Shown: piece by piece, positions 576 to 54,304 of the stretch
Layout: each line of letters starts with the position of its first letter
Numbering within the stretch: the first letter of the stretch is position 1
Virus record (IMG/VR): IMGVR_UViG_2541047320_000011
Coordinates: 1 to 64,000 of that record
DNA: 64,000 nucleotides
Direction: 5' to 3' (one strand)
From: an uncultured virus (IMG/VR IMGVR_UViG_2541047320_000011)
Taxonomy: Duplodnaviria; Heunggongvirae; Uroviricota; Caudoviricetes
Position numbers and translations under genes: made by a program
The notes under the pieces: model-generated
Databases searched by the model: none
What the model saw: only the letters and a program-made list of their open reading frames with translations
Told to the model about the DNA's origin: nothing

Positions 576-3500
576 TTAAAGTGTTTCCTCATCTATACTG
601 AATATCATAGATGGTCTTTTTATTGCTGTATCTTCATTTCCATTTACAATAATTTTAGGTTCTACTTCTTTAATTCCATTTTCTTTAAACTCATATATTT
701 CTTGATAACCTGTGTCAACTTTTTTTATTTCTAATAATTTGGCATCTTTATGCATACCAGTGTTATTAGTTTTTATTTGAACTTTCAATTTATTAATTAA
801 TTGATATATTATGTCTCCTACATTTATATTTCCTTCTAATTCTCTATCTAAAGTGACCGTAATCTTATTTTCAGTATCAGTTATAGATTTGACAGTATAT
901 CTTTTTCTATTAATTAATAAGTTTGAATCTTCGGTAACACATATAGCATTATTTTCTTTATTTATAATTGCAGATGCATACATATTATTGTTATAATCAT
1001 CATATCCTTTAAATACAACATTATTTGTTCCAAGTATTATTTTATCTAATGGTATTGAAAAGGCAGCAATCTTATTGGTGAATTGAGTCATGGTTGTAAT
1101 TAATTCATTATTTATATACATCTCTATTTTTATAATTGGATTTCCAATATCATCTATTTTAACCTTAAATCCAGATATAGTTTTTTCCATAATTTCTATA
1201 GTGGAATTCATTGTATGAGTTTTATATATCATTACTGTTGTTTCTTCATTTAAAGGATTAACCCAAGTTAAATCTTCTGGCTTTACAAAATCTGGTATTT
1301 CTATTTTATTGAATATTGTAGTATCATTTCCAGCTATTTTATAATGGTCTCTAATTTTACCACTTATGTAAACAGTATTATCTGTTTTTCTAAATAATAT
1401 ATAATCATAGCCTATTTCAACATCATCAACATTATCTGCTACTTTAGTAAAATTTATTATTGTTTGATTTACTTTACTAGCTCCTAATCCTAAATTACCA
1501 TTTCTATTATGACCTTGTACCCATAACGTATTATCATTTAATAATACTAGTGTGAAGTTATGGTCACACATTACCTTTTTAGCATTAGATATACCAGGAA
1601 CTCTTTGAGGTTCTGTAACTTCATTATTATGTCCTAATCCTAATTGATATGAACCATTTAAACCTACAGAATATAAAGTACCATCATTTTTTACAAAATA
1701 TGAGAATCCAGTACCAGCAGATGCTTGTTTAATATTATCAAAATTCAATTTAGTAAAAGATGATAATTCTGTTGTTGTAGGTGGATTTAATAGTTGTCTA
1801 TATAAATTTGAACCACAACCGTAAAGTTCTCCATTTGTATTTACAATTAGAGAATGTGTTTTTGACATCCAAAATTCTTTAATATTTTCTACAGGAATTT
1901 TTATCACATTGTAAGCTTCTGGATGAGTAGGTATACTATTGCTTCCTAATAATTTATTATAGTTTAATTCATAATCTGATTCAGTATTGTGTATATGATG
2001 CGTATCTTTTACTGGGATTAAATATTGATTATTTACTAAATTAAAGTTAGTATTTGTTGTAATACTGTTTATTTTATTAAAATCAAATAAATTATAATTA
2101 AATAATTTTGCAAGAGATGCTGTAGTAGTTAATTCTCCTAATCCTAATTGACCATTAGTATTATTTCCTGCTCCTAATATAGCACCATCATTGAGAGTTA
2201 ATATTGTATAATTTGTCCCACATGATATATCTTTTACATTATCTTTAATTTTTGTAAATGTTGTTAAATTAGTAGTATTTCCAGTTCCTAATTCACCATT
2301 AGCATTATATCCTTGTGCCCATACAGTATTATCATTTTTTAATACTACTATACATCCATATCCACATTGTACCTTCTTAATATTATCTATATTATTTACT
2401 TTAGTAAATACATTTCTACTAGTATTATCGCCTAGACATAATTGTCCTAAATGGTTTCTACCAGTAACCCATAATGTATTATCTGTTTTTAATATTGCAG
2501 TAAACTCAACACCACATATTACCTCTTTAACATTCTCTATATCTACTTTTGTAAATTTTTTTGTTGCATCATTATGTCCTAATCCTAATTCACCATTATT
2601 ATTATATCCTGTAGCCCATAATGTATTATCATTTTTTATTACAAAAGAACTTGATTTATTTGCTTTGATATATTTTACATCATTTATAGGTAATTTAGTA
2701 AAAGTTTTGAAACTGTTAGGAGATGTCATTCCTAATTCACCAGATGCATTACCTCCTGAACCATATACATTTCCAGTATCTGTTAATACTAGTGTATATC
2801 TACTACCAGCACTTACTTGAACAATATTATGCCCAATATCTCCCAGTTTTGTAAATGTATTTCTACTACCACTAATATTACCTAAAGCTCCATTTGCAGT
2901 TATTCCTGTACCCCATACAGTACCATCAGTTTTTAATATTATAGTAGCATCTGTTCCTATAGAAATATCTTTAACATTATTTATATTTACTTTTGTAAAT
3001 GATAATCTAGTTGTAGTATTTCCAGTTCCTAATTCACCATTAGCATTATATCCTGTACTATATACATCTCCATTATTTTTTAGTATAAAAGTTCTATTAA
3101 CTTGACTACATACAACTTTAAAATTATTAGTAAAATTGGTTACATTATTATTTATCATCCATGACCATGAAGCTTCTGATGTAGAATTAAATGATGCTGT
3201 TCCATCCCCCATTCCTAATTGACCAATTATGTTACTACCTCTAATATAGACTTCATTTCCATCTGTTATCATAATAGTATATTCTGCTCCAGATACTGCA
3301 TGTCTTATACGCATGTTATTTGGAAGTATGGTTGTAAAACTATTAATATTAGAACTACTATTATATATTTGATTCTTATTATTATTTCCTGTAGCTAATA
3401 TTGTACCAGTACAATCAAGTATTAATTTATGTAAAGAAGTAGGCGAAGATTTACATATGTATTGTACATAAGAACGAGCAAGTGTGAAAGTATTAATAGG

Positions 3501-5471
3501 ACTTGTCAAATTGCCCAATCCTAATTGACCACTTGTGTTAAGTCCAGCAACCCATAATTCAGAATTATTTTTTAATATATATGTACTATTACCCCCAGCG
3601 TCTATTTGTTTTACATCACTAATATCTACTTTTGTGAATTCTTTTACCACATTATTATTTCCAGTTCCTAATTGACCATTAGTATTATTTCCTGTACCCC
3701 ATACAGTATCATCATTTTTTAATATTATAGTATGATTTGAACCACATGCCACATCTTTTACATTATCTATTCCAATTTTTGTAAATGTTGTTACATTTGT
3801 ATTATGTCCTAATCCTAATTGACCACTTGAATTATTTCCTGTACCCCATACAGTATCATCATTTTTTAATATTATAGTATGATTTGAACCACCACATATA
3901 TCTTTTACATTATCTATATTTATTTTTTTAAAAACATTAGTATTTGTATTATGTCCTAATCCTAATTGACCACTTGAATTATTTCCTGTACCCCATACAG
4001 TATCATCATTTTTTAATATTATAGTATGATTTGAACCACATGCCACATCTTTTACATTATCTTTAATTTTTGTAAATGTTGTTACATTTGTATTATGTCC
4101 TAATCCTAATTGACCACTTGAATTATTTCCTGTACCATATAATATCCCATTACCTTTTAATAAAAATGTATGATTATCTCCACAATATATTTTATCTCCT
4201 TTATTGTAAATTAAATAATCTCCATTTTCTTTTAATAAGTATGTATCTCTACCAACATTTATCGACTTATTATATCCTATATAATCTCTATTTTTATATG
4301 TACAATAAGTAATAAATCGTGTATCATTTACAAAGTCTTTACATCCTATATTATAAATATTATTATTTCCTGTAAAATATATTTTATTATCATTTGTTAT
4401 TGCATAAAATGTGTAAGCATTATTACTTAAAATATATTTAATATTATATAAATCTTCTATTTTAATAAAGACATTTGATATGCCACTGTTATTATTAATA
4501 CCTATATTGCTTTTATTGCCAGTTCCCCATATAGTATTATCTAATTTAAATATCATTGTGTTAATATTTCCAGCTACTACTTGTTTAACATTTGTTGCAA
4601 TTGAAGTAAATGATAATCTAGTTGTAGTATCTCCAGTTCCTAATTGACCATCACCATTATGTCCTGTACCCCATACAGTATCATCATTTTTTAATATTAT
4701 AGTATGATTTGAACCACCACATATTTCTTTTACATTATCTATTCCAATTTTTGTAAATGTTGTTACATTTGTATTATGTCCTAATCCTAATTGACCATCA
4801 CCATTATATCCAGTAGTCCATACAGTATCATCATTTTTTATTACAAATAAATTATAACAAACAATTTTTATGTATTTTACATCTTCTATAGGTAATTTGG
4901 TATAAGAGAGTTTCATTGAATAATTATCTCCAAAACCAAATAAATTTCCCCTTGTATTTCCATTTCCAACCTCTGGATTTCCTGCACCCCATACAGTACC
5001 ATCAGTTTTTAATATTACACAGATTTTTTCACTAAAACATTCAACATCTTTAACATCAGTAACTGGAATTTTTATAAATGTATTTCTAACATTTCTATCT
5101 CCCATTCCTAGTTCAGCATTATAATTTATACCAGCACCATATAATTCGCCAGAATTGGTTAATATCAAAGTAGAATATGTGTTACTTACCACTTTTTTTA
5201 TATCTGTAATACCCACATCAATTTTGGTAAATTCTTTAATAGAATATAGCATTGCATTATTATACGAAGTTAATATATCATATGCTTTTCCTACACCAAA
5301 ACCATTTAAACCACAAATCCATAAACTGCCATCAGCTTTTAATCCATACATACCATTTGCATAAGGAAATAATTTTACAAAATCATACTTATTCCAATCA
5401 GTACTAAATTCTTCAAAAAAATAGTTACTATTAAAGTATCTACCACGTTGTAACAATTTATTTTCTTTCAA
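576..5471 (-). CDS. RCC1/BLIP-II repeat beta-propeller protein, probable tail receptor-binding or adhesin protein
   Basis: 1631 aa; many repeats of the form ILKNDDTVWGTGxNxxGQLGLG; lies next to the baseplate gene. Confidence 0.85.
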   Translation of the reverse strand: MKENKLLQRGRYFNSNYFFEEFSTDWNKYDFVKLFPYANGMYGLKADGSLWICGLNGFGVGKAYDILTSYNNAMLYSIKEFTKIDVGITDIKKVVSNTYSTLILTNSGELYGAGINYNAELGMGDRNVRNTFIKIPVTDVKDVECFSEKICVILKTDGTVWGAGNPEVGNGNTRGNLFGFGDNYSMKLSYTKLPIEDVKYIKIVCYNLFVIKNDDTVWTTGYNGDGQLGLGHNTNVTTFTKIGIDNVKEICGGSNHTIILKNDDTVWGTGHNGDGQLGTGDTTTRLSFTSIATNVKQVVAGNINTMIFKLDNTIWGTGNKSNIGINNNSGISNVFIKIEDLYNIKYILSNNAYTFYAITNDNKIYFTGNNNIYNIGCKDFVNDTRFITYCTYKNRDYIGYNKSINVGRDTYLLKENGDYLIYNKGDKIYCGDNHTFLLKGNGILYGTGNNSSGQLGLGHNTNVTTFTKIKDNVKDVACGSNHTIILKNDDTVWGTGNNSSGQLGLGHNTNTNVFKKINIDNVKDICGGSNHTIILKNDDTVWGTGNNSSGQLGLGHNTNVTTFTKIGIDNVKDVACGSNHTIILKNDDTVWGTGNNTNGQLGTGNNNVVKEFTKVDISDVKQIDAGGNSTYILKNNSELWVAGLNTSGQLGLGNLTSPINTFTLARSYVQYICKSSPTSLHKLILDCTGTILATGNNNKNQIYNSSSNINSFTTILPNNMRIRHAVSGAEYTIMITDGNEVYIRGSNIIGQLGMGDGTASFNSTSEASWSWMINNNVTNFTNNFKVVCSQVNRTFILKNNGDVYSTGYNANGELGTGNTTTRLSFTKVNINNVKDISIGTDATIILKTDGTVWGTGITANGALGNISGSRNTFTKLGDIGHNIVQVSAGSRYTLVLTDTGNVYGSGGNASGELGMTSPNSFKTFTKLPINDVKYIKANKSSSFVIKNDNTLWATGYNNNGELGLGHNDATKKFTKVDIENVKEVICGVEFTAILKTDNTLWVTGRNHLGQLCLGDNTSRNVFTKVNNIDNIKKVQCGYGCIVVLKNDNTVWAQGYNANGELGTGNTTNLTTFTKIKDNVKDISCGTNYTILTLNDGAILGAGNNTNGQLGLGELTTTASLAKLFNYNLFDFNKINSITTNTNFNLVNNQYLIPVKDTHHIHNTESDYELNYNKLLGSNSIPTHPEAYNVIKIPVENIKEFWMSKTHSLIVNTNGELYGCGSNLYRQLLNPPTTTELSSFTKLNFDNIKQASAGTGFSYFVKNDGTLYSVGLNGSYQLGLGHNNEVTEPQRVPGISNAKKVMCDHNFTLVLLNDNTLWVQGHNRNGNLGLGASKVNQTIINFTKVADNVDDVEIGYDYILFRKTDNTVYISGKIRDHYKIAGNDTTIFNKIEIPDFVKPEDLTWVNPLNEETTVMIYKTHTMNSTIEIMEKTISGFKVKIDDIGNPIIKIEMYINNELITTMTQFTNKIAAFSIPLDKIILGTNNVVFKGYDDYNNNMYASAIINKENNAICVTEDSNLLINRKRYTVKSITDTENKITVTLDRELEGNINVGDIIYQLINKLKVQIKTNNTGMHKDAKLLEIKKVDTGYQEIYEFKENGIKEVEPKIIVNGNEDTAIKRPSMIFSIDEETL
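3691..4138. repeat. Near-identical 147-nt (49-codon) tandem repeats inside the RCC1 gene
   Basis: cctgtaccccatacagtatcatcattttttaatattatagtatgatttgaaccac at 3691, 3838, 3985 and 4663; partial copy at 4129. Confidence 0.9.
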
Positions 5472-19300: not shown

Positions 19301-22300
19301 CCTATTGCTAATGGGAGTGAAATATGCATTTTGTCAGCCGCTTTAGTTATACCATTTAAAATTCCAGCAATACCAGATAATCCATCTAAACTAGTCTTAA
19401 ACATATCTGTAGATATAGTGTCTGTAACTAATTGTTTAAGACTTTCTTTTAATTTTATAATTTTACCTTCTGCTGAATTTATGAATCTCTCATTCTCTTT
19501 TTCAGCAGAGCCAAATACATCCCCATCTAACCATGCACTTTGGAATTTTTTTCGATTGTTATTAACCAGTAGCTTTTTATCTACTGCTCTGGAGGTTTCC
19601 CTCATTTTCATCGACTTGTCATTTCAAGTCCAGTCTAGCATATCTTTTGTACTCATAACAAAGACCATAAAGCCACAGAGCCTCTTGGAGATATTATATT
19701 CTATTTCTAGTTTCAATCTCTATGCGTTGCGGATGGAAAGCCTTTTAAAACTTACCTTCACCTCTGATTAGCGTATTTATTAAAATAAACTTAGCTTTCC
19801 AGATTTTCTCTCTGTTAATACTCTTAATTCTTCTATGGTAGTTGAATTAAGACGGCAATTTATTTTTACCTGATTCCAATTATCCATGATAGCCATGAAT
19901 GTATTGATGTGGTTTTTACCTGAACAAAATCTTCAATTAAGTTCGCTATACTTAACTCGTTCTCTTACGAACTGCTATATGTTTCCATATAGATGAGACT
20001 ATATCTTCATCCTATAAGGATGCTCCCCATTTCCACTATCAATAGCTTATAGTGTACGGTTTATAACCTAGTCGTTGAACCTTACTCTCTTGAGTCTTGG
20101 TTGCTGATTATCCCTATCTTTTAGTTTTTCACACTTTGGTACTAAAAGCCTAACGGGAGTTTCCAGCAATTAAAGGAGTTTATCATTATATATTACTATA
20201 TAAGGCGACTAAAATTAATCGCTTCGGCAATACCACTTTTTTGATTTTTAGTTAAAGCATCTTCTCCAACACTATGCCACTTTTCTGCCAACTCATCTAA
20301 AATTGACATCATATCTCTTACTTGGCCAGTTTGTTTATCCAACACATTTATTTTTGCTGTTTCTTGTAATGTTTTAGCAGTTTTGTTAAGGCTGATTTTT
20401 CCTGAATCTGCTGAAGCTTTGATACCACTCATGTTTATACCAATTGTTTTGAGTGCTGTACCTACTTTTTCAGCATTTTGTACAGATTCATTTCCTCCAA
20501 CTATCAAGGCAACAGAGTCTTCCATTGAAACACCTGCTGATGACAGCATACTCGCACTTCTTTGTAATGCAGCTCCTACCGATATCTTCACATAGATTCG
20601 TTACTTCTATGCAGTTCTCTTATGAACTTCTTTATATCTCTATAAAGACGAGACTATATCTTCATCCTATAAGGATGCTCCCCATTTCGATTCACTTGAA
20701 TCTACATAATAGTCGTTGAACCTTCTCCTATACGGAGCTTGGATGCTGATTGTCCAATCCAACTAATTTTTAAACATTCACATTTATCGTTTCCAATTAT
20801 GTTGTAGTCTAGTTGGCTCTAAGGAGTTTCCAGCAGTTAAAGGAGTTTTTAACTATATATTACTATATAGTGCGACTAAAGTTAATCGCCAGTTGTTATT
20901 GCAAAATTATTCTTTTATACCCTCAATTTCTCGATATTTAAAAGGGAATAGACTATACCATCATCCATTTAGGATGCTCATTGGTAGTCGTTGAGAGCTT
21001 ACCATATTCTTTTTTTGAACTTAGGTCTATCTCTGCTGATTGTCCAATCCTTAATGTTTTCAGATGATATATAAGTTTCCAAATACATCTACTAATTAAG
21101 GCTCTAAGGAGTTTCCAGCATATTCTGAGTTCAGTTGTACATTACTGTACAAAGGGGCTATTTTGTTAACCTGCATAGTTCGATAAATCAAGAAATTTTG
21201 TAAGATTATCATAATCTTTACTCATTCCTTTGATTTGAACTCTAGTATCTTTAATTGGTTTTAATGCTTTTGTCATTCCACCATAAGCAGACATAACACT
21301 AGTTAAGTACTTATCAGCAGTTTCTTGGTCTAAATCCAATTGTTATTAGCTCAAGGTTTTTTATCCTTGACTCTGGAGGTTTCCCTCATTTTCATCAGTT
21401 AGTTAATTCTAACTCAGCTTAGCATATCTTTTTTACTTATAATTAAATCATAAAGTAAATGGGAACTCTTGGAGATATTATATTCTATTTCTAGTTTCAA
21501 TCTCTATGCGTTGCGTGTGACCAATCTTTTAAAATTAGCCTTCCACTCGGATTAGCATTTTAAAGCTTTCCCGTTTCTTTCCCATTAATAATCCTAATTC
21601 TTCTATGATTGTTGAATTAAGACGGCAATTTATTCACCAACATTTGCAAAAACTGCTGATTGTTTAGCTATCTTCAAACTGTCTGATACTGATTTTACAC
21701 CAGTTTGTAGAGCTTTAGATGCCCCCTGAATTATATCTTCTGATGCTCTAGCCGTATCTTTCCCTATTGAGATTGCTTCATTTTTTACATTCTTTAATTG
21801 CTCACTTGTTCCTTCAAAATTATTAGGTGCTACTTTCATCATATCTCTTAAAGCACTATCTAATTCAACAATAGTTGTTTTAATATTTCTTACACCATTT
21901 GTAATAGACATACCTATCATATTACCTAAAGTATAAGTTCTCATCGAATTATATAGGTCACTAAAAAATCCACTTGTTGCTTTTACACTAGTTCCTAATC
22001 CTGTGAAATTAGATTTCATATTGCTTAATCTGCTTTTTATTGAATCTAATTCCTTTACTTTTTGACCTAGAGGCATACCATTTAATTGCATTAATTCTTT
22101 TTCTAGTTTATCAATTCCAGCAGTTGATTGACCCAATTCTAAACATTTTTGTCTAAGCCTATTTAAATCTGAAATTACTTTTGAAAGATTCATATTGAAC
22201 TTAGCATCTAATTTAGTATTTTTAGTAGCATTTTCTACTTCTTTAACTTTATTTTTTAATTGTTCTAGTTTTTGTATTTCTGATTGTATTTGATTAGAAG

Positions 22301-48542: not shown

Positions 48543-49736
48543 CTATTTAAGCTTAATATTATAAGTACATAATCTTCCATCATCATTAAATATCATTAAT
48601 TTTTGCATTGTATATGAACTTAATCTTAGATTCTTAGCATATGTATCTGTTCCAGAAAAACTTCCATTTACAATAATTTCACTTTCTCCATAACTATCTT
48701 CTTTACAATTGTGTAGATGAGCCATGAAAATATAATCAGGAATTGATTTTATAAGAGATGTTAATTTAGGAATTGCTGTAGACATTTTATCTTTATCTCC
48801 ATGTACTGCAAAACATGTATTTCCACATATTTTAGCAACTATTATGTCATTATCATATATATTCTCTTGAAATATTACATTGTCTAAATTTTTAATTCTT
48901 AGCTTTATATATTCATCTATCAATAGTGTAAAATTATCTTTATCTAAGTTTTCATCTTTCTTTGGAAGAACTCTATCATGATTCCCTCCTACTGAATAAA
49001 CAATAATCTCATTAATTTTTTTAGACAACTCATATATAAATTCACTAAGTATTTCAGACACCTCTATAATTTGTTCAACTATATTTTCTCTATTTTCTAA
49101 TCTTATAGAATTATGTATATGTCCAGAAATCAAATCTCCAAGTAACATTACATGTACTCTCTTAACCTTATGTAACTTACTATATTCAATAATTTTATCT
49201 TTTAAATATTGTATCCTTATCTTGAATATTTCTGAATTATATCTATTAAAAGCATTAATAGTCTCTAATCCATAATGTATATCTGAAATTAGTATAATAG
49301 CCTCTTGATTTGAAGATTCATAGCTTTTGTAACTAGAATCACTTAGAAATGGCTTATGAAGCGATATATCATCTATTTTATTATTAAATAAATCAATTAT
49401 ATTATCTATCCTTGAATATTCTCTTATTTTCTTATTTACTAACGACCTTTCATCAGATAACTGTACTTTCATCTTTTTCAACTCTAATATTTTCTCATTT
49501 ATTTTATCAATCTCTTCTTGAGTAGAATTATCCTGTATCTTAGAATTAAGATAATCAAAAGCCTCTTTCAAGCCATATGAAACTTTCCTACAGTGGTCTG
49601 GCGAACATTCTAATCCTAATAGTTCAACTATCTCTCCCCAATCCAAATCTATTTCTTTATTAGCTTTTGCTAATCGTATTCTAAACCTATAGTCAACCAG
49701 TGACTCATCTTCTTTTTTCTTCAATATGTCTTCCAT
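48543..49736 (-). CDS. Calcineurin-like metallophosphoesterase (SPbeta YonJ-like)
   Basis: SDIHYG, LGDLISG, GNHDR, HGD and AHLH motifs; RBS AGGGAG before ATG at 49736. Confidence 0.85.
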   Translation of the reverse strand: MEDILKKKEDESLVDYRFRIRLAKANKEIDLDWGEIVELLGLECSPDHCRKVSYGLKEAFDYLNSKIQDNSTQEEIDKINEKILELKKMKVQLSDERSLVNKKIREYSRIDNIIDLFNNKIDDISLHKPFLSDSSYKSYESSNQEAIILISDIHYGLETINAFNRYNSEIFKIRIQYLKDKIIEYSKLHKVKRVHVMLLGDLISGHIHNSIRLENRENIVEQIIEVSEILSEFIYELSKKINEIIVYSVGGNHDRVLPKKDENLDKDNFTLLIDEYIKLRIKNLDNVIFQENIYDNDIIVAKICGNTCFAVHGDKDKMSTAIPKLTSLIKSIPDYIFMAHLHNCKEDSYGESEIIVNGSFSGTDTYAKNLRLSSYTMQKLMIFNDDGRLCTYNIKLK

Positions 49737-49812
49737 ATTCAATATCTCCCTATTTTTCACATAAATATCATTATCAATATATTAAGTAAAAAATAAATAG
49801 TCTAATGTTAAT

Positions 49813-50001
49813 TTATTGGACTATTGTTTCACTTAATCTTATCGTTATATTTAAATCTGTTTTTCCAATATACTGGTCAAAAACATCACTAGATAACACT
49901 TCATTATCACCATTTTTTGTATGCTCTATAAATTTATAAGTACCATCTTCTTGTTTTATTACTTCACATTTTTCTAAAATTGTTCCTTTATTATTTTTCA
50001 T
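49813..50001 (-). CDS. YonK-like small protein
   Basis: 62 aa, IEHTKNGD...FDQYIGKT.LNITI; upstream of the YonJ-like gene as in SPbeta. Confidence 0.55.
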   Translation of the reverse strand: MKNNKGTILEKCEVIKQEDGTYKFIEHTKNGDNEVLSSDVFDQYIGKTDLNITIRLSETIVQ

Positions 50002-50052
50002 ATATTTTCTCCTTTATTTTTATATTATATAACTCTACTGGGAATATATTTG

Positions 50053-50347
50053 TTTGCAAATTAGGCAGCCTTGTAGCTAACAATAGCTAATATAAGTTAA
50101 CGCATTTCGCATTTATCAAGGATTTTATATAACTTTTTTATTTTATTTTTGATATTTTAATAATTTAATCTTTTATACTTGAGATTTCACATTTGAATTT
50201 TTAACTTTAAGCTTTATATCCATTATTCTCTTTTATACAGTACAATCGTTTCGTTTGTATGTACCCATCACTTTTATATAAGCAGTTTGATTTTTAACCC
50301 AAAATCAATGGGAACTTATAATTTATGTTATTCGCCTAACCTGCAAA
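50053..50347 (-). ncRNA. Putative structured ncRNA containing a phased heptamer array
   Basis: 14-bp closing helix TTTGCAGGTTAGGC/GCCTAATTTGCAAA, internal helices, and NAARNNT repeats at 50216-50168. Confidence 0.7.
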
Positions 50348-50370
50348 TTAAAAAATAGTCCAATTAAGGA

Positions 50371-50988
50371 CTATTTTAAATCTACATCTATAATTGTAAG
50401 TGCATTTGATGTACTCAATGCAAAATCAACTTCCTTTTCAAATTCTTCTATTTCATTCCTTAACTTTTCTATTTTCTCTCTTACTTTTAAAGGGTCTACT
50501 AAAGACCATTCCTGTTGTTTTTTATAAAATGAAATAAGTTCTGCTCCATCTTTACTTTTTTCTTTTTCCTCAAACATTTTATCTGTATTTCTTTGTACTT
50601 CTTCATTTCTACGATTTACTTCAGACATCATACAATCATAGTTACTAACCATTTGTCTCAACAAGGATTTATCTAATTCTATACTATTCTTTCTTTTTAT
50701 TGCTTCTAAAACCGTATAATTTTTATTAGCAATTTGAACATTTGTTATAGCATTAGAGATATTAATTGCTTTATCTAATGCATTATAATTATATATTAAA
50801 TCTTCTATTTGCTGGTATTTACTTGAAACTTCTACATTAAAATCTTCTACACTTGTTTTTGTTTCATATACATTTTTATCAGAACCTTTTTTAGTACCTA
50901 CAATTTTAAAATTACTAATGCATCTATCTATCTTATCTTCTAATAACTTCTTTTCTGCTAAAGCTTTATGAACATTATATTTAACCAT
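50371..50988 (-). CDS. Helical coiled-coil protein, DIP1984/septicolysin-like family (tentative)
   Basis: ALAEKKLLEDKI...YTVLEAIKRK...EVDFALSTSNALT pattern. Confidence 0.6.
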   Translation of the reverse strand: MVKYNVHKALAEKKLLEDKIDRCISNFKIVGTKKGSDKNVYETKTSVEDFNVEVSSKYQQIEDLIYNYNALDKAINISNAITNVQIANKNYTVLEAIKRKNSIELDKSLLRQMVSNYDCMMSEVNRRNEEVQRNTDKMFEEKEKSKDGAELISFYKKQQEWSLVDPLKVREKIEKLRNEIEEFEKEVDFALSTSNALTIIDVDLK

Positions 50989-51043
50989 AAAAACATCTCC
51001 CTTTTAATTAAAATATTATTTTAAAATAACAAACTCTTTTTAT

Positions 51044-51134
51044 TGGAAGAGAGGAAGGGATTTGAACCCTCGTATCAAATTAATTGAACTAATAGTTTAG
51101 CAAACTATCCTCTTTACCACTTGAGTACCTCTCC
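51044..51134 (-). tRNA. tRNA-Ser (GCT)
   Basis: Cloverleaf with long variable arm; anticodon arm ATAGT-TTGCTAA-ACTAT; encoded CCA. Confidence 0.9.
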
Positions 51135-51139
51135 ATATT

Positions 51140-51216
51140 TGGTAGGAATAATAGGAGTCGAACCTATGACCTTTCGGGTATAAACCGAATGCTCTAACCA
51201 CCTGAGCTATATCCCT
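51140..51216 (-). tRNA. tRNA-Ile (TAT)
   Basis: AGGGATA/TATTCCT acceptor stem; anticodon arm TTCGG-TTTATAC-CCGAA; TTCGA T-loop; A73 then CCA. Confidence 0.9.
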
Positions 51217-51234
51217 TTTGAAAACAAATTTAAA

Positions 51235-52113
51235 TTATATTACCAATTTAAAATCTATATCATTTTCCTCTAACCAGCTTTTAGCTATCTTTTCCATCTT
51301 TAAGATTTCTTCATCTGAAAATCTAGCTAATCCTTTACCTTTTCGATTTCTAACATTAATGCCAAGTTTATAGTTAATGAATCTATAAAATTCATCCCAT
51401 GCTTTACCAAACATACAATTAAATTTTTTAACTGCTATTGTTCTAACACATTTATTAATAATAGCTTTACTTTCTGTTATAGTGACTGAATTAGTTATAA
51501 CATCTTCTAAATGAGATATTCTTTTATTCTTCAACCCTATTAACTCAGTCTGTAATACAGATAATTTATTATGGTCGCCAGAAATTATCGCTTCAATCAT
51601 ATCTTCTTTTATATTTTGTTCAGTTCTAATTTCTTCTATTACAATTTCAGTTTGTTCTTCTGCATCATGTACAATATCTAGTAGTCTAGTTCTAACTTCT
51701 TTAGCAACTTCTGAATCTCTAAGTAACATACCTATTCTGAGAATTGCTCTTTTTGGTATTAATATTAATCCTGTATTATTTATAGATACACTTTCATTAT
51801 TTTTAAATGTTACTATTGATTTTGTCCTTTCATTTTTTACGTTTTCCAAATTAATTGGATTTCGTTCAAATATAGAAATTATCTCATTTTTCTTATATTT
51901 CTTTAGTCCATCATTCTTTAGCTCCTCTTTGTTTAATCTTATACATTCTTGAATTGTAGATTCTTTAACTTCATAATACTCAGAAACAAGTTCTACTGTA
52001 CTAAAATCTGTATTTGCTAAAGTTAATATCTCTTTCACATGTTCCAATACATCTACTCTATCTATATTTCTATCTCTTAATTCTTTATTTTCTATAAGTT
52101 TTTCACCATTCAT
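51235..52113 (-). CDS. Phage antirepressor-like DNA-binding protein
   Basis: RAILRIGMLLRDSEVAKEVRTRLLD; C-terminal AWDEFYRFINYKLGINV. Confidence 0.7.
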   Translation of the reverse strand: MNGEKLIENKELRDRNIDRVDVLEHVKEILTLANTDFSTVELVSEYYEVKESTIQECIRLNKEELKNDGLKKYKKNEIISIFERNPINLENVKNERTKSIVTFKNNESVSINNTGLILIPKRAILRIGMLLRDSEVAKEVRTRLLDIVHDAEEQTEIVIEEIRTEQNIKEDMIEAIISGDHNKLSVLQTELIGLKNKRISHLEDVITNSVTITESKAIINKCVRTIAVKKFNCMFGKAWDEFYRFINYKLGINVRNRKGKGLARFSDEEILKMEKIAKSWLEENDIDFKLVI

Positions 52114-52147
52114 TTTATCAAATCTCCCTTTTAGTATTTATTTAAAA

Positions 52148-52190
52148 GGAAGAAAGACTTACTGCTATCTCACGACATGTGCTTTCTTCC
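52148..52190 (-). promoter_or_regulatory. Conserved leader hairpin, copy 1 (copy 2 at 54146-54190)
   Basis: AAGAAAGCACATGTCGTGAGATAGCAGTAAGTCTTTCTT is identical in both copies, each just upstream of an RBS. Confidence 0.75.
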
Positions 52191-52541
52191 AGTTCTGAAA
52201 TGGTGAGTAATTATCCCACAAATTTCACGTTGTAGTTTAATATTTTAGTGGCATCATCATCTTATATTGTAAGATACCTATTATTAGCCACCAGAGCTTC
52301 TCAAAATGAGCTATCTCTGCTAATTGTATTAACTTTTAGCATATTCTATGTTTGCTATCATATTTCACCATATGAAGGGGCTTTTAACCCATATGTATTA
52401 AATTCAAATAGTAAATCCGAAGCTTTAGCTGAGGATAACAACTGAACGAAGTGAAGGCGTTAGTTATAGCTACCGCGTCACTTACGTTCCTTGCTATCAC
52501 TTCGACTAAAGCTTTGTGATTAAAATTATAATTATAAAATC

Positions 52542-53096
52542 CTACTTATTACATATTTTATATAATGTTTCTTGTTTCTTTTTTGTTCTTTTTCTAATTT
52601 TTTCAATTCTATAATTACATTCTTTTAAATAATTAATGAATTTATTAGCAGACATTACTCTTCTTTTATTATCTTTTAACTCATATGTATTGATGATATT
52701 TTCCAATTCATATTTAAATAACCATTTATTTAAATAGTCATCTTGTATAACCAGTCCTTCTTCTAATAATTTATTTTGTTTCTTTATTTTTTCTTTGCCT
52801 ATTGCTGCATCTATATCAGCACAACCTTTACATTGTCCATTGCTCCAATAATATAATTGCAATTTTACCTCATAATCTAATGCATCTTTTTCATTTTCAA
52901 AATACTTAATAATATCAACATTATAATTATAGTTATTGTTTTTTACTATATCATACCATTTTTCATTTCTGATTTGATTATAAATTCTGTCTCCAATTCC
53001 TTTTCCAATATAAAAGACATTCTCTTTACCATCATGATCTATAATGTAATGTTTATAAACATAATATTTATCCTTTTCAAAGTATTGTAAATTCAT
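52542..53096 (-). CDS. GIY-YIG-superfamily nuclease-like protein (free-standing)
   Basis: YYVYKH...VFYIGKGIGDR...ALDYE. Confidence 0.7.
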   Translation of the reverse strand: MNLQYFEKDKYYVYKHYIIDHDGKENVFYIGKGIGDRIYNQIRNEKWYDIVKNNNYNYNVDIIKYFENEKDALDYEVKLQLYYWSNGQCKGCADIDAAIGKEKIKKQNKLLEEGLVIQDDYLNKWLFKYELENIINTYELKDNKRRVMSANKFINYLKECNYRIEKIRKRTKKKQETLYKICNK

Positions 53097-53130
53097 AACA
53101 TACACCTTTAAAATATTTCTTTCAAAAAAA

Positions 53131-53188
53131 ATCCGATGACCTGCATATTGATATATATATTTATATAAGTATGCGAGTTATCGGAAAA
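53131..53188. repeat. ~58-bp imperfect palindrome, copy 1 (copy 2 at 60781-60840)
   Basis: tccgatgacctgcatattgatatatatatttatataagtatgcgagttatcgga. Confidence 0.85.
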
Positions 53189-53189
53189 A

Positions 53190-54116
53190 TTAATATGAGT
53201 TGTATTTTACTAGTTTATTATTAATATTACTATTATTATTTCTATACCTAAAAGCTTTAACAATTATATCTAATAACTCTTTATTTTTCATAACATTAGT
53301 TCTATATTCTGTCTTATGTACTTGATATAACTTAACTAATCCTATTTCTCTTGCAAATTCATTGAATGCTATGTATTTATCTTTCTGAGTTACATTTAAT
53401 TCATGTTTATTATGTTTCACCATATTTACTACTCTATTATAATTTTCTTTATCTTTTAAAAATGGTGTATTTGCTATAATTCTACATGCATTTAGATAAT
53501 CTTCATACAAACTATTATCAACTATGATATTTTCTTTTCTTTTAAAGTTTATATTTTTATCTGCTACCAGTCTAACCTGATATCTAAAATTATCTAATTC
53601 TTTATCTTGATTTACTCTATTTTTACAATTTTCTTTATGTGGTATTAATTCACTTTTAATACTTAAGACATCTATATCTTTAAATGTAGCATATGTAACT
53701 GTTTTAGATAGATTAGAGGGCATAAAGATATTATTTTTAATTAATTTATTTTTATATCTTGATATGGTATTTTTGTCCACTCCTACTATATTTGCAATTT
53801 GATTTGATGATAATATACTCATATTCCCCTTTATATCTTGCATAGTTAGAATCACAGCCATGTAATATAATAATTTATTTATATCTACTTTACTATCAAA
53901 TTTCCAGACATTATAAGCAATTTGTTTAAAAATATCATATGCTATATATTCACTGTCTTTTATTTCTTTTCTATAAAACTTTCTTTTTTTACCTTTTCCA
54001 TCATAAAAAATATTATTTTCTTCTAATTTAGAAGCATATTTTTTAAAATCTTTATATAACGTATTTTCACTAACACATATTATCTTGCTTACTTCTTTTA
54101 TATTTATTTCTTCTAT
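53190..54116 (-). CDS. HTH DNA-binding protein, 308 aa with probable ATA start (track shows only the last 223 aa)
   Basis: Frame is open 85 codons upstream of ATG 53861 to an ATA placed after GAGAGGATGA; two HTH-like segments. Confidence 0.7.
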   Translation of the reverse strand: MEEINIKEVSKIICVSENTLYKDFKKYASKLEENNIFYDGKGKKRKFYRKEIKDSEYIAYDIFKQIAYNVWKFDSKVDINKLLYYMAVILTMQDIKGNMSILSSNQIANIVGVDKNTISRYKNKLIKNNIFMPSNLSKTVTYATFKDIDVLSIKSELIPHKENCKNRVNQDKELDNFRYQVRLVADKNINFKRKENIIVDNSLYEDYLNACRIIANTPFLKDKENYNRVVNMVKHNKHELNVTQKDKYIAFNEFAREIGLVKLYQVHKTEYRTNVMKNKELLDIIVKAFRYRNNNSNINNKLVKYNSY

Positions 54117-54145
54117 GATATCATCCTCTCTTTCTTAATAAAAAG

Positions 54146-54190
54146 AAAAAGAAAGACTTACTGCTATCTCACGACATGTGCTTTCTTTTT
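54146..54190 (-). promoter_or_regulatory. Conserved leader hairpin, copy 2
   Basis: Identical core to 52148-52190. Confidence 0.75.
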
Positions 54191-54200
54191 GCTTAAAAGA

Positions 54201-54245
54201 TGGAGATTAATGGAATCGAACCATTAACAATCTCCTATATCTCCA
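54201..54245 (-). pseudogene. tRNA remnant / minihelix (acceptor stem + T arm)
   Basis: GGAGAT...AATGG-TTCGATT-CCATT-AATCTCCA; no D or anticodon arm. Confidence 0.5.
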
Positions 54246-54304
54246 CAATGATAAGTCCAATTAAGACTTATCCATTTTATATTTATATTTTATTTAGTTG
54301 TTAA

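Follow-up and report, generated by a model that had tools for sequence, protein, structure and literature searches.

Among the structured non-coding RNAs of phages, ROOL and GOLLD are large, often lie in or beside tRNA islands and have no known function (bioRxiv 10.1101/2024.12.08.627333). GOLLD sometimes carries tRNAs in its linker region and is reported to bind ribosomes in pull-downs, and in the part of that account drawn on here both are RNA-only cages with no known protein partner (bioRxiv 10.1101/2024.12.08.627333). The element considered here lies on the minus strand of a 64,000-nt stretch of phage DNA (positions 1 to 64,000 of IMG/VR record IMGVR_UViG_2541047320_000011; hereafter the window), where positions 50347-50053 correspond to a 295-nt RNA whose ends are joined by a 15-bp helix, termed P1, and which carries an array of seven-nucleotide units behind the gene for a 205-residue protein. 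Comparison with its relatives establishes, at the level of sequence, that this heptamer RNA is a member of a large and unannotated family of structured phage RNAs. To our knowledge, ROOL and GOLLD are the only large structured RNAs known in phage tRNA islands. The heptamer RNA resembles them in that it usually lies in tRNA clusters and that two of its members embed a tRNA-like module; it differs in being smaller (232-464 nt among 38 non-redundant members), in having a central heptamer array and, as far as that account presents ROOL and GOLLD, in being tied to one protein gene.

The Y RNAs, which bind Ro60 via their stem, offer a second comparison. In the heptamer RNA, as in the Y RNAs and YrlA, the 5' and 3' ends form a long closing stem around a modular effector region. 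The Y RNAs, however, have no heptamer array, the RNA of the window has neither a tRNA-like insert nor a match to the YrlA model, and the gene beside it encodes a helical, DIP1984-like protein rather than a Ro60 ring.

Short motifs repeated at regular spacing are familiar from regulatory RNAs that bind a protein multivalently. CsrB bears many 7-nt units that contain GGA, TRAP reads 11 triplets, and HutP recognises NAG triplets with four bases between them, again a period of 7 nt. The heptamer RNA shares with CsrB, RsmZ and the targets of TRAP and HutP a short motif that recurs many times at even intervals, a design that serves multivalent protein binding in those systems. Its unit, YAAAGNU, differs from theirs in having no GGA and in being contiguous and unpaired rather than displayed in hairpin loops. 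Mostly seven units make up the first block, framed by a conserved folded core that distinguishes it from CsrB and the targets of TRAP and HutP, and family searches show no relation of the candidate partner protein to CsrA, TRAP or HutP.

An RNA family behind a single protein gene

The 205-residue protein matches relatives in 732 phage records, and a cut-off of E 0.001 gives its family 3,372 clusters at 50% identity, 1,540 of them with E up to 1e-30; the best 150 members listed all measure 204-228 residues. Six phages with homologs at 28-44% protein identity were examined (Clostridium botulinum D-1873, Salmonella Stitch, T5, Pectobacterium My1, Lactococcus 949 and Bacillus BM15), each of which has an unannotated gap of 361-1233 nt 3' of the homolog. 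These gaps present the same features in the same order, namely a long helix between the two termini, an H-type pseudoknot on the 5' side with a GGUUAA-type junction, and 7-nt units with AAAG in phase. A profile scan of IMG/VR with the protein returned 59 diverged loci, and in all of them the 3' flank scores highest for lag-7 identity (0.46-0.70) over a heptamer run of the AAAG type, located 86-287 nt past the stop codon. Removal of near-duplicates left 38 RNAs, the window included, which always lie on the strand of the gene; the gap between stop codon and RNA is 3-56 nt in 37 of them and 124 nt in the other.

Lag-7 identity alone discriminates poorly (0.46-0.70 in downstream flanks vs 0.37-0.68 in upstream flanks), and a score on the family unit pattern, with a maximum of 35, was preferred for calling arrays. 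This score reaches at least 25 in 32 of the 38 RNAs. The remaining six (BM15, L056, L057, L074, L077 and L107) score 20-24, their units being mostly visible by eye yet drifting out of phase or differing in sequence. Bacterial genomes provided a further set, for which the best 80 of 179 relatives were kept, mostly from Bacillota, with sufficient flank at 77 loci; here 69 loci score at least 25 and the other eight score 21-24, against a maximum of 22 in the upstream-flank control. A search from the side of the RNA, with a 17-nt motif of the 3' domain, gave 80 IMG/VR loci. An array (score at least 25) is present in 42 of these, and in 40 of the 42 the protein gene precedes it on the same strand; the other 38 loci (score 20 or less) are chance hits, none of which has the gene. 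The earlier note on the window had joined the RNA to the adjacent helical protein and had proposed that the flanks of homologs be checked for the helix and the 7-nt period. That check proved positive in distant phages, IMG/VR loci and bacterial-genome loci alike, and the genetic coupling was borne out in 59/59 IMG/VR and 69/77 bacterial loci as well as in 40/42 loci reached from the RNA.

Within the window, the seven heptamers listed in the earlier note stand exactly where it had placed them and score 30/35, compared with 25 for the best other place on either strand of the 64-kb window and 27 for the best of 100 block shuffles. Identity within this array is 0.55 at lag 7 and 0.54 at lag 14, and 0.29-0.44 at lags 1-5. 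Across 266 units of the family, position 1 is U (42%) or C (33%), position 2 A (95%), position 3 A (91%), position 4 A (71%) or G (18%), position 5 G (64%) and position 7 U (88%), with position 6 variable, and this unit is kept across phages of Gram-negative and Gram-positive hosts. Most members have exactly seven units, bounded by CUG and by a U-rich break that is sometimes a hairpin. Three to five further units follow the break and end in a conserved AAAG-UUUUAY-AAAAUCC sequence leading to the helix P-a. The looser units noted earlier beyond the seven (50167-50127) match this break and second array, the latter being degenerate in the window phage.

Anchored on the conserved 3' junction motif, P1 forms an unbroken run of 10-21 bp in 33 of the 38 RNAs, ending at a conserved (C/U)G that is followed by AAAA. 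When each was shuffled 2000 times, no shuffle reached the observed run in 27 of the 33, and one did so in the other six. The innermost pair is G.U in 33/33, each of the next eleven positions uses 3-6 types of pair, and one further position is G.U in 19/33. A column test on a MAFFT alignment (A3, 36 pairs) found standard pairs in 79.2% of cells vs 61.1% with shuffled partners, none of 500 shuffles attaining the observed value; sliding the partners by 1-3 columns left 38-50% paired, and both sides change in 33 of the 36 pairs. Helix P-a (CCUUG/CAAGG in the window), which abuts P1, is paired in 99.5% of cells with covariation at four of its five pairs, and stem S2 of the pseudoknot in 72.6% with covariation at all eight. 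RNAalifold, run on the MAFFT alignment, found P-a independently and found only this helix, P1 being missed because of one-column offsets in the alignment. The bacterial-genome set, from which no rules were drawn, has an anchored P1 run of at least 12 bp at 36 of its 77 loci, as compared to 1/77 in the shuffled control, and a gap-free long-range helix of at least 13 bp at 50 of the 77.

On the opposite strand the G.U pairs would turn into C.A mismatches, and the folded strand is therefore that of the gene, in agreement with the earlier note. Together with the fixed orientation relative to the gene, they point to an RNA rather than to duplex DNA. An element acting at the level of DNA, such as origin iterons or a packaging or partition site, would be in keeping with the A/T-richness of the stretch and with its short direct repeats, flanked as they are by inverted ones, and the phage is of a kind able to persist in plasmid form. 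It is nevertheless the least probable of the explanations weighed here: in addition to the invariant and frequent G.U pairs, compensatory changes keep the helices without conserved sequence, the element abuts tRNA genes in its fixed orientation, and it is shared by phages whose replication and packaging modules are unrelated. An iteron origin would moreover be expected to consist of duplex repeats of ~17-22 bp, as opposed to a 7-nt period with pairing on one strand only.

No family of Rfam 15 covers the RNA in the window (49700-51100, E up to 10) or in five relatives (L009 and L030-L033). Two weak rows, GP20-a (E 5.4) and snoR19 (E 8.2), were dismissed as chance-level, and a tmRNA match (6.5 bits, E 5) falls on tRNA-Ser and not on the RNA. 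The ROOL and GOLLD models have no match at 49700-51100 (E up to 10), in the whole window (gathering score), or in L009 and L030-L033 (E up to 1 or 0.1), and ARAGORN calls only tRNA-Ser and tRNA-Ile in the window, at 51044-51216, with no tmRNA on the RNA. The T5 copy occupies AY587007 43063-43414, behind ORF080, and 441 T5-like records carry the RNA, the T5-type sequence being at least 90% identical in 440 of them. Among the 60 of these records that were listed, 54 have no feature at this place, three have hypothetical-protein calls and three are unannotated; none has an RNA feature. Small stable RNAs of ~100 nt were reportedly described in the T5 tRNA region decades ago, and would not be this 350-nt RNA. 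The literature searched on non-coding RNAs of T5, Tequintavirus and Demerecviridae, on heptamer repeats and on RNAs of tRNA clusters gave no description of it. A survey of 10,006 candidate viral RNAs does not present it in the main text, and its supplementary tables could list a partial motif (PMC10690425). The heptamer RNA would thus be a new class in phage tRNA islands, set apart by its tie to a protein gene, its seven in-phase heptamers and its presence in T5, whose host, E. coli K-12, places it within reach of ordinary genetics and biochemistry.

tRNA islands and variable inserts

A tRNA gene is found within 1.5 kb in 47 of the 59 IMG/VR loci, and the tRNAs lie on the strand of the module in all but one locus. 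At five loci (L071, L074, L075, L077 and L104) a tRNA starts 5-7 nt past the 3' arm of P1, and at many a tRNA ends ~40-55 nt before the protein gene, an arrangement shared by the window, D-1873 and BM15. The 3' side of the RNA is otherwise diverse: an intrinsic terminator follows in Lactococcus 949 and BM15, and in T5 the RNA sits between ORF080 and the annotated early promoter P23. The protein gene itself is placed among early genes and tRNAs in both T5 and its relative SP15.

The variable insert of two members matches the Rfam YrlA model from end to end (L059 2199-2307, 37.8 bits, E 1.2e-5; L100 2207-2331, 33.4 bits, E 2.3e-4), with both scores below the gathering score of 69. The insert resembles a tRNA, with its T arm and D arm and an acceptor stem that is capped, and ARAGORN calls no tRNA on either copy.

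Other unusual RNAs occur close to members of the family. Two loci, L104 and L106, have an ARAGORN suppressor-type tRNA with anticodon UUA at 1329-1400, ~100 nt upstream of the protein gene, as well as an odd ARAGORN tRNA with a two-base anticodon 7 nt past the RNA. Phage D-1873 (L009) bears a drum RNA (RF02958; 3853-3960, 47.7 bits, over the gathering score) ~430 nt downstream of the heptamer RNA, and the unannotated stretch between them, 3430-3850, is G+C-richer; this gap may hold several RNAs. Phage K expresses an abundant long non-coding RNA, lnc001, beside tRNA-Met according to the portion of the report consulted (PMC9241854). It was set aside as a different RNA, having no heptamer array and a neighbour, gp233, that does not match the protein profile. 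The T5-like phage SP15 has a retron anti-defence island in which, in the part of the description used, Rad is ORF75, a 189-residue Toprim-type protein, and the Ec83 blocker is ORF71-73 (bioRxiv 10.1101/2023.03.15.532788). No link was found, the protein gene of SP15 (E0157_083) being ~6 kb away.

Candidate ligands of the array

The protein encoded beside the RNA matches phrog_1491 with E 8.6e-71, residues 1-203 aligning to profile positions 2-210 of 211. PHROG 1491 is labelled 'tail fiber protein' and the gene is widely so named, a label left unsupported by its location among early genes and tRNAs in T5 and SP15. The confident AF2 model (predicted local distance difference test 88.3) consists of long helices and a small four-stranded sheet, and the alignment shows an SNAxT strand motif conserved twice. 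Its top match in Foldseek is PDB 3kdq (probability 1.0, E 6.7e-3, template-modelling score 0.45/0.57), as it is in VIA-align (Z 9.9, root-mean-square deviation 8.4, 151 residues aligned), where the matches that follow, all generic helical bundles, reach at most Z 8.1. This structure, of a DIP1984-family protein from Corynebacterium diphtheriae, covers nearly the whole chain; it measures 152-154 residues vs ~205-215 in the present family, and its function is unknown, so that it lends no mechanistic clue. At the level of sequence, the profile aligns with 3kdq at E 0.21, which is not significant, the weak alignment lining up the SNAxT motif; Pfam gives no match at E up to 0.01 and only chance-level rows at E up to 10, and NCBIfam gives none with E below 0.24. 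The tentative DIP1984-like identity offered by the earlier note is thus upheld by the fold and not by the sequence. The literature searched on DIP1984 or septicolysin gave no function for the protein.

The same note had suggested a type III-like toxin-antitoxin or host-defence element. The locus is like ToxIN and CptIN in that a repeat-bearing RNA is encoded beside a protein gene, with a terminator-like hairpin separating them in the window. It departs from those systems in the length of its units, in the order of gene and RNA, in its biological setting and, as far as the structural matches show, in the fold of the protein. Its units are imperfect and of 7 nt, vs tandem repeats of ~34-36 nt; the RNA follows the gene, whereas the antitoxin repeats precede the toxin gene; nothing like a nuclease, including endoribonucleases of the ToxN, AbiQ or CptN kind, appears among matches from Pfam, PHROGs, NCBIfam and structural comparison, PADLOC not having been searched; and the pair is a standard module of virulent phages, located in the tRNA islands of T5 and carried as RNA by the 441 T5-like records. 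A toxin-antitoxin or abortive-infection pair in which the repeat RNA neutralises a toxic protein is consequently unsupported and very improbable.

The reading preferred here, with a probability of roughly 0.45, is that the co-encoded protein is the most likely ligand of the array; it is ranked above a role for the RNA alone or with other factors because of the coupling of gene and RNA. That the adjacent acidic, DIP1984-like protein binds the array is plausible from their co-occurrence. The RNA would be co-transcribed with the protein gene and the tRNAs and trimmed by tRNA-processing enzymes; with a tRNA starting 5-7 nt after P1 in several relatives, RNase P would set the 3' end of the RNA. The structured core would present the heptamers as a multivalent single-stranded platform, for which an oligomer of the co-encoded protein is the most economical candidate partner. 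The resulting phage ribonucleoprotein may act early in infection, in translation, tRNA metabolism or counter-defence. Such a function, if known, would account for a conserved early module common to phages of Proteobacteria and Bacillota, and may also show why phages carry tRNA islands.

Several observations weigh against binding by the co-encoded protein or against the generality of the fold. The protein is acidic in all 27 aligned members (isoelectric point 4.9-6.5), which lends no support to RNA binding driven simply by charge, and scans against Pfam and NCBIfam recognise no RNA-binding domain in it. A terminator-like hairpin separates gene from RNA in the window. Stem S1 of the pseudoknot, paired in 45% of cells on the MAFFT alignment, is unconfirmed. 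Of the bacterial-genome loci, 41/77 fail the strict anchored P1 test and ~27/77, mostly from Lysinibacillus and Solibacillus, show no gap-free long-range helix of at least 13 bp. The two gene-less exceptions found from the side of the RNA are one sequence (L119 = L182), a 32-kb contig that has no protein gene and in which the 5' half of the RNA is absent and the 3' half kept. Finally, RNA libraries X1 and X3, from one study, contain single contigs of 3,034 and 2,618 nt spanning 49400-51140 of a ~95%-identical relative, with gene, RNA and neighbours in one piece at depths of 93 and 350; libraries X5 and X6 touch only the tRNA-Ile stretch. These contigs are compatible with transcription and, as a counterpoint, weak: DNA carry-over is possible, and since they carry no ends, strand or level, a discrete RNA is neither proved nor disproved by them.

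The gene-less contig shows a peculiar junction. A 471-aa open reading frame (ORF) at locus positions 107-1519, zinc-ribbon rich and endonuclease-like by eye, ends exactly at the start of the array in the truncated RNA (~1520-1700). A free-standing RNA was rejected for this contig, which is read as a disrupted copy with half an RNA behind the ORF.

A serious competitor, although given somewhat less weight, is an RNA that acts without the adjacent protein. It could assemble with itself, or it could titrate or lure away some component of host or phage, for example the ribosome, tRNAs, an RNase or a different RNA-binding protein; the protein gene would in that case be no more than a neighbour in the operon, with a related role. 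The acidity of the protein and the lack of a known RNA-binding domain speak for this, as does the precedent of ROOL and GOLLD, inasmuch as the account used here describes cages of RNA without a known protein partner and ribosome binding by GOLLD in pull-downs. The conservation of the unit across phages of Gram-negative and Gram-positive hosts would fit a universal target, and the tRNA mimic in two members is in keeping with it. What such an RNA leaves without explanation is the gap of 3-56 nt in 37/38 RNAs and the 40/42 co-occurrence, a coupling tighter than ordinary operon neighbourhood and maintained across phage families whose other neighbours differ.

The constant position just past the stop codon, always on the strand of the gene, could also suit a cis-acting element of the 3' untranslated region or intercistronic space, which would stabilise, process or regulate the upstream or downstream mRNA. 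In the window the RNA reaches the ribosome-binding site of the next gene with no terminator between, and the RNA-library contigs are continuous through it. A length of 232-464 nt with a multi-domain core, a pseudoknot and a tRNA-mimic insert is far beyond known 3' stabilisers, however, and the 3' neighbour varies (tRNA, terminator, promoter or gene), making a fixed downstream target unlikely; a cis role is quite improbable overall.

Binding of the co-encoded protein could take a more specific form, in which the heptamers form a template that counts subunits. One DIP1984-like subunit would occupy each YAAAGNU unit, and the RNA core would nucleate an oligomer of defined size, with seven subunits plus those of the second array. 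This elaboration is on balance unlikely. If true, it would amount to an RNA-templated phage particle made from tRNA-island transcripts, whose target would be translation or the tRNA system of the host, or else defences aimed at tRNAs. The AAA/AAG-rich units, taken with the tRNA-mimic inserts, hint at mimicry at the level of the anticodon or the ribosome.

The window locus

The window phage is a Clostridioides difficile phage of the phiCD211/phiCDIF1296T type, ~130 kb in size, and phage LIBA2945 is 99.9% identical to the window across 49700-51100. The order of genes on the minus strand is a sigma factor and HU, three extra ORFs, tRNA-Ile, tRNA-Ser, the 205-aa gene, a 369-nt spacer, the 62-aa gene, an Mre11-like exonuclease, a 286-aa gene and the large terminase. 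Features of the locus are collected in Table 1.

Table 1. Features at and around the heptamer RNA, in positions of the window. MFE, minimum-free-energy fold.
Feature	Position	Strand	Remarks	Basis
tRNA-Ile(UAU)	51216-51140	-	same strand as and upstream of the 205-aa gene	ARAGORN/Rfam
tRNA-Ser(GCU)	51134-51044	-	same strand, 55 nt upstream of the 205-aa gene	ARAGORN/Rfam
205-aa gene	50371..50988	-	PHROG 1491 member; mostly helical plus small sheet; SNAxT motif twice	ORF
Terminator-like hairpin and U run	50352..50377	-	overlaps stop codon of the 205-aa gene, precedes RNA	
P1 5' arm	50333..50347	-	ends in family-conserved CG	MFE and anchored search
Junction AAUAAC	50327..50332	-	family consensus AAAAC after P1 G	
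H-type pseudoknot	50287..50312	-	S1, 50312-50309 with 50300-50298; S2, 50308-50301 with 50294-50287	
Insert-region hairpin GUACA...UGUAC	50240..50264	-	region variable across family	MFE
Array A, seven in-phase heptamers	50168..50216	-	family consensus YAAAGNU	unit-pattern score
A/U-rich break and degenerate array B	50127..50167	-		alignment
Conserved AAAAUCC motif	50117..50126	-	overlaps P-a 5' strand (50121-50117)	
3'-domain hairpin, UAGCUA stem	50074..50089	-		MFE
P-a 3' strand CAAGG	50069..50073	-	final GG opens conserved GGCUG junction	
P1 3' arm	50053..50067	-	starts with U of invariant inner G.U pair	
62-aa gene (phrog_21503)	49813..50001	-	begins 51 nt past RNA, without intervening terminator	

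Positions 50347-50333 of the window pair with 50067-50053 to form P1, which is present in both the MFE and the centroid fold and contains three G.U pairs (G7.U289, G8.U288 and G15.U281). The closing helix exists where the earlier note had placed it, and its size is corrected from 14 bp with two G.U pairs to 15 bp with three. Sought from the conserved 3' motif, it is an unbroken 15-bp run that none of 2000 shuffles of the 5' 45 nt matches; for the whole 369-nt spacer the folding z score is -2.38 (minus strand) vs -1.91 (plus strand). The RNA does not begin directly at the end of the gene, as had been thought, the terminator-like hairpin standing between stop codon and helix. The stem of this hairpin has compensatory changes in one close relative, ES-S-0107-01.

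Of the inner helices proposed at first, CCTTG/CAAGG is the family helix P-a and TTGATTTT/AAAATCAA is the covarying stem S2 of the pseudoknot, which is followed by the conserved GGUUAA-type junction in the design seen in the six phages; GTACA/TGTAC was recovered in the MFE as a local hairpin of the variable region. The pairing CCCAT/ATGGG competes with the pseudoknot stem CCCA/UGGG, neither being settled because of the weak column test of S1 (45%), and a TATAAGTT/AACTTATA helix is absent from the window MFE. At its 3' end the RNA runs into the ribosome-binding site of the 62-aa gene.

One copy of the RNA element is present in the 135.8-kb phage record, and a DNA similarity search finds it in seven close relatives only, at 96-100% identity, copies that are too similar to test pairing. 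Two further relatives, ES-S-0173-01 and pCD1602_4, have at this position neither the RNA nor an ORF of the size of the 205-aa gene, their homology to the window ending at ~50055 and ~50028, respectively. The joint absence of RNA and gene-sized ORF suggests gain and loss as a unit.

Elsewhere in the window, positions 51140-54300 form a ~3.1-kb block that is extra relative to phiCD211, in which HU follows tRNA-Ser by ~570 nt. The block holds tRNA-Ile(UAU) and ORFs of 292, 187 and 223 aa, the N-terminus of the 187-aa ORF being GIY-YIG homing endonuclease-like as judged by eye, and the RNA-library contigs of the relative also part from the window at 51140. Two RF00028 group I introns lie on the minus strand at 19975-20226 and 20630-20895 (104.5 and 86.9 bits), ~400 nt apart, and probably interrupt a single phage gene; the same model has no match in 49700-51100 at E up to 10. 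Three 26-nt repeats, identical and nearly palindromic, occur at a spacing of 147 nt (3711-3736, 3858-3883 and 4005-4030), and a partition or replication protein of this plasmid-like phage could bind there. A CUACUGGGAAU-type motif upstream of the 62-aa gene (50037-50047) is kept in relatives that have no RNA (L001 at ~3350 and L002 at ~3328), in the first of which it is part of a 7-bp hairpin. This motif may be a promoter or leader element of the operon of the 62-aa gene and the exonuclease.

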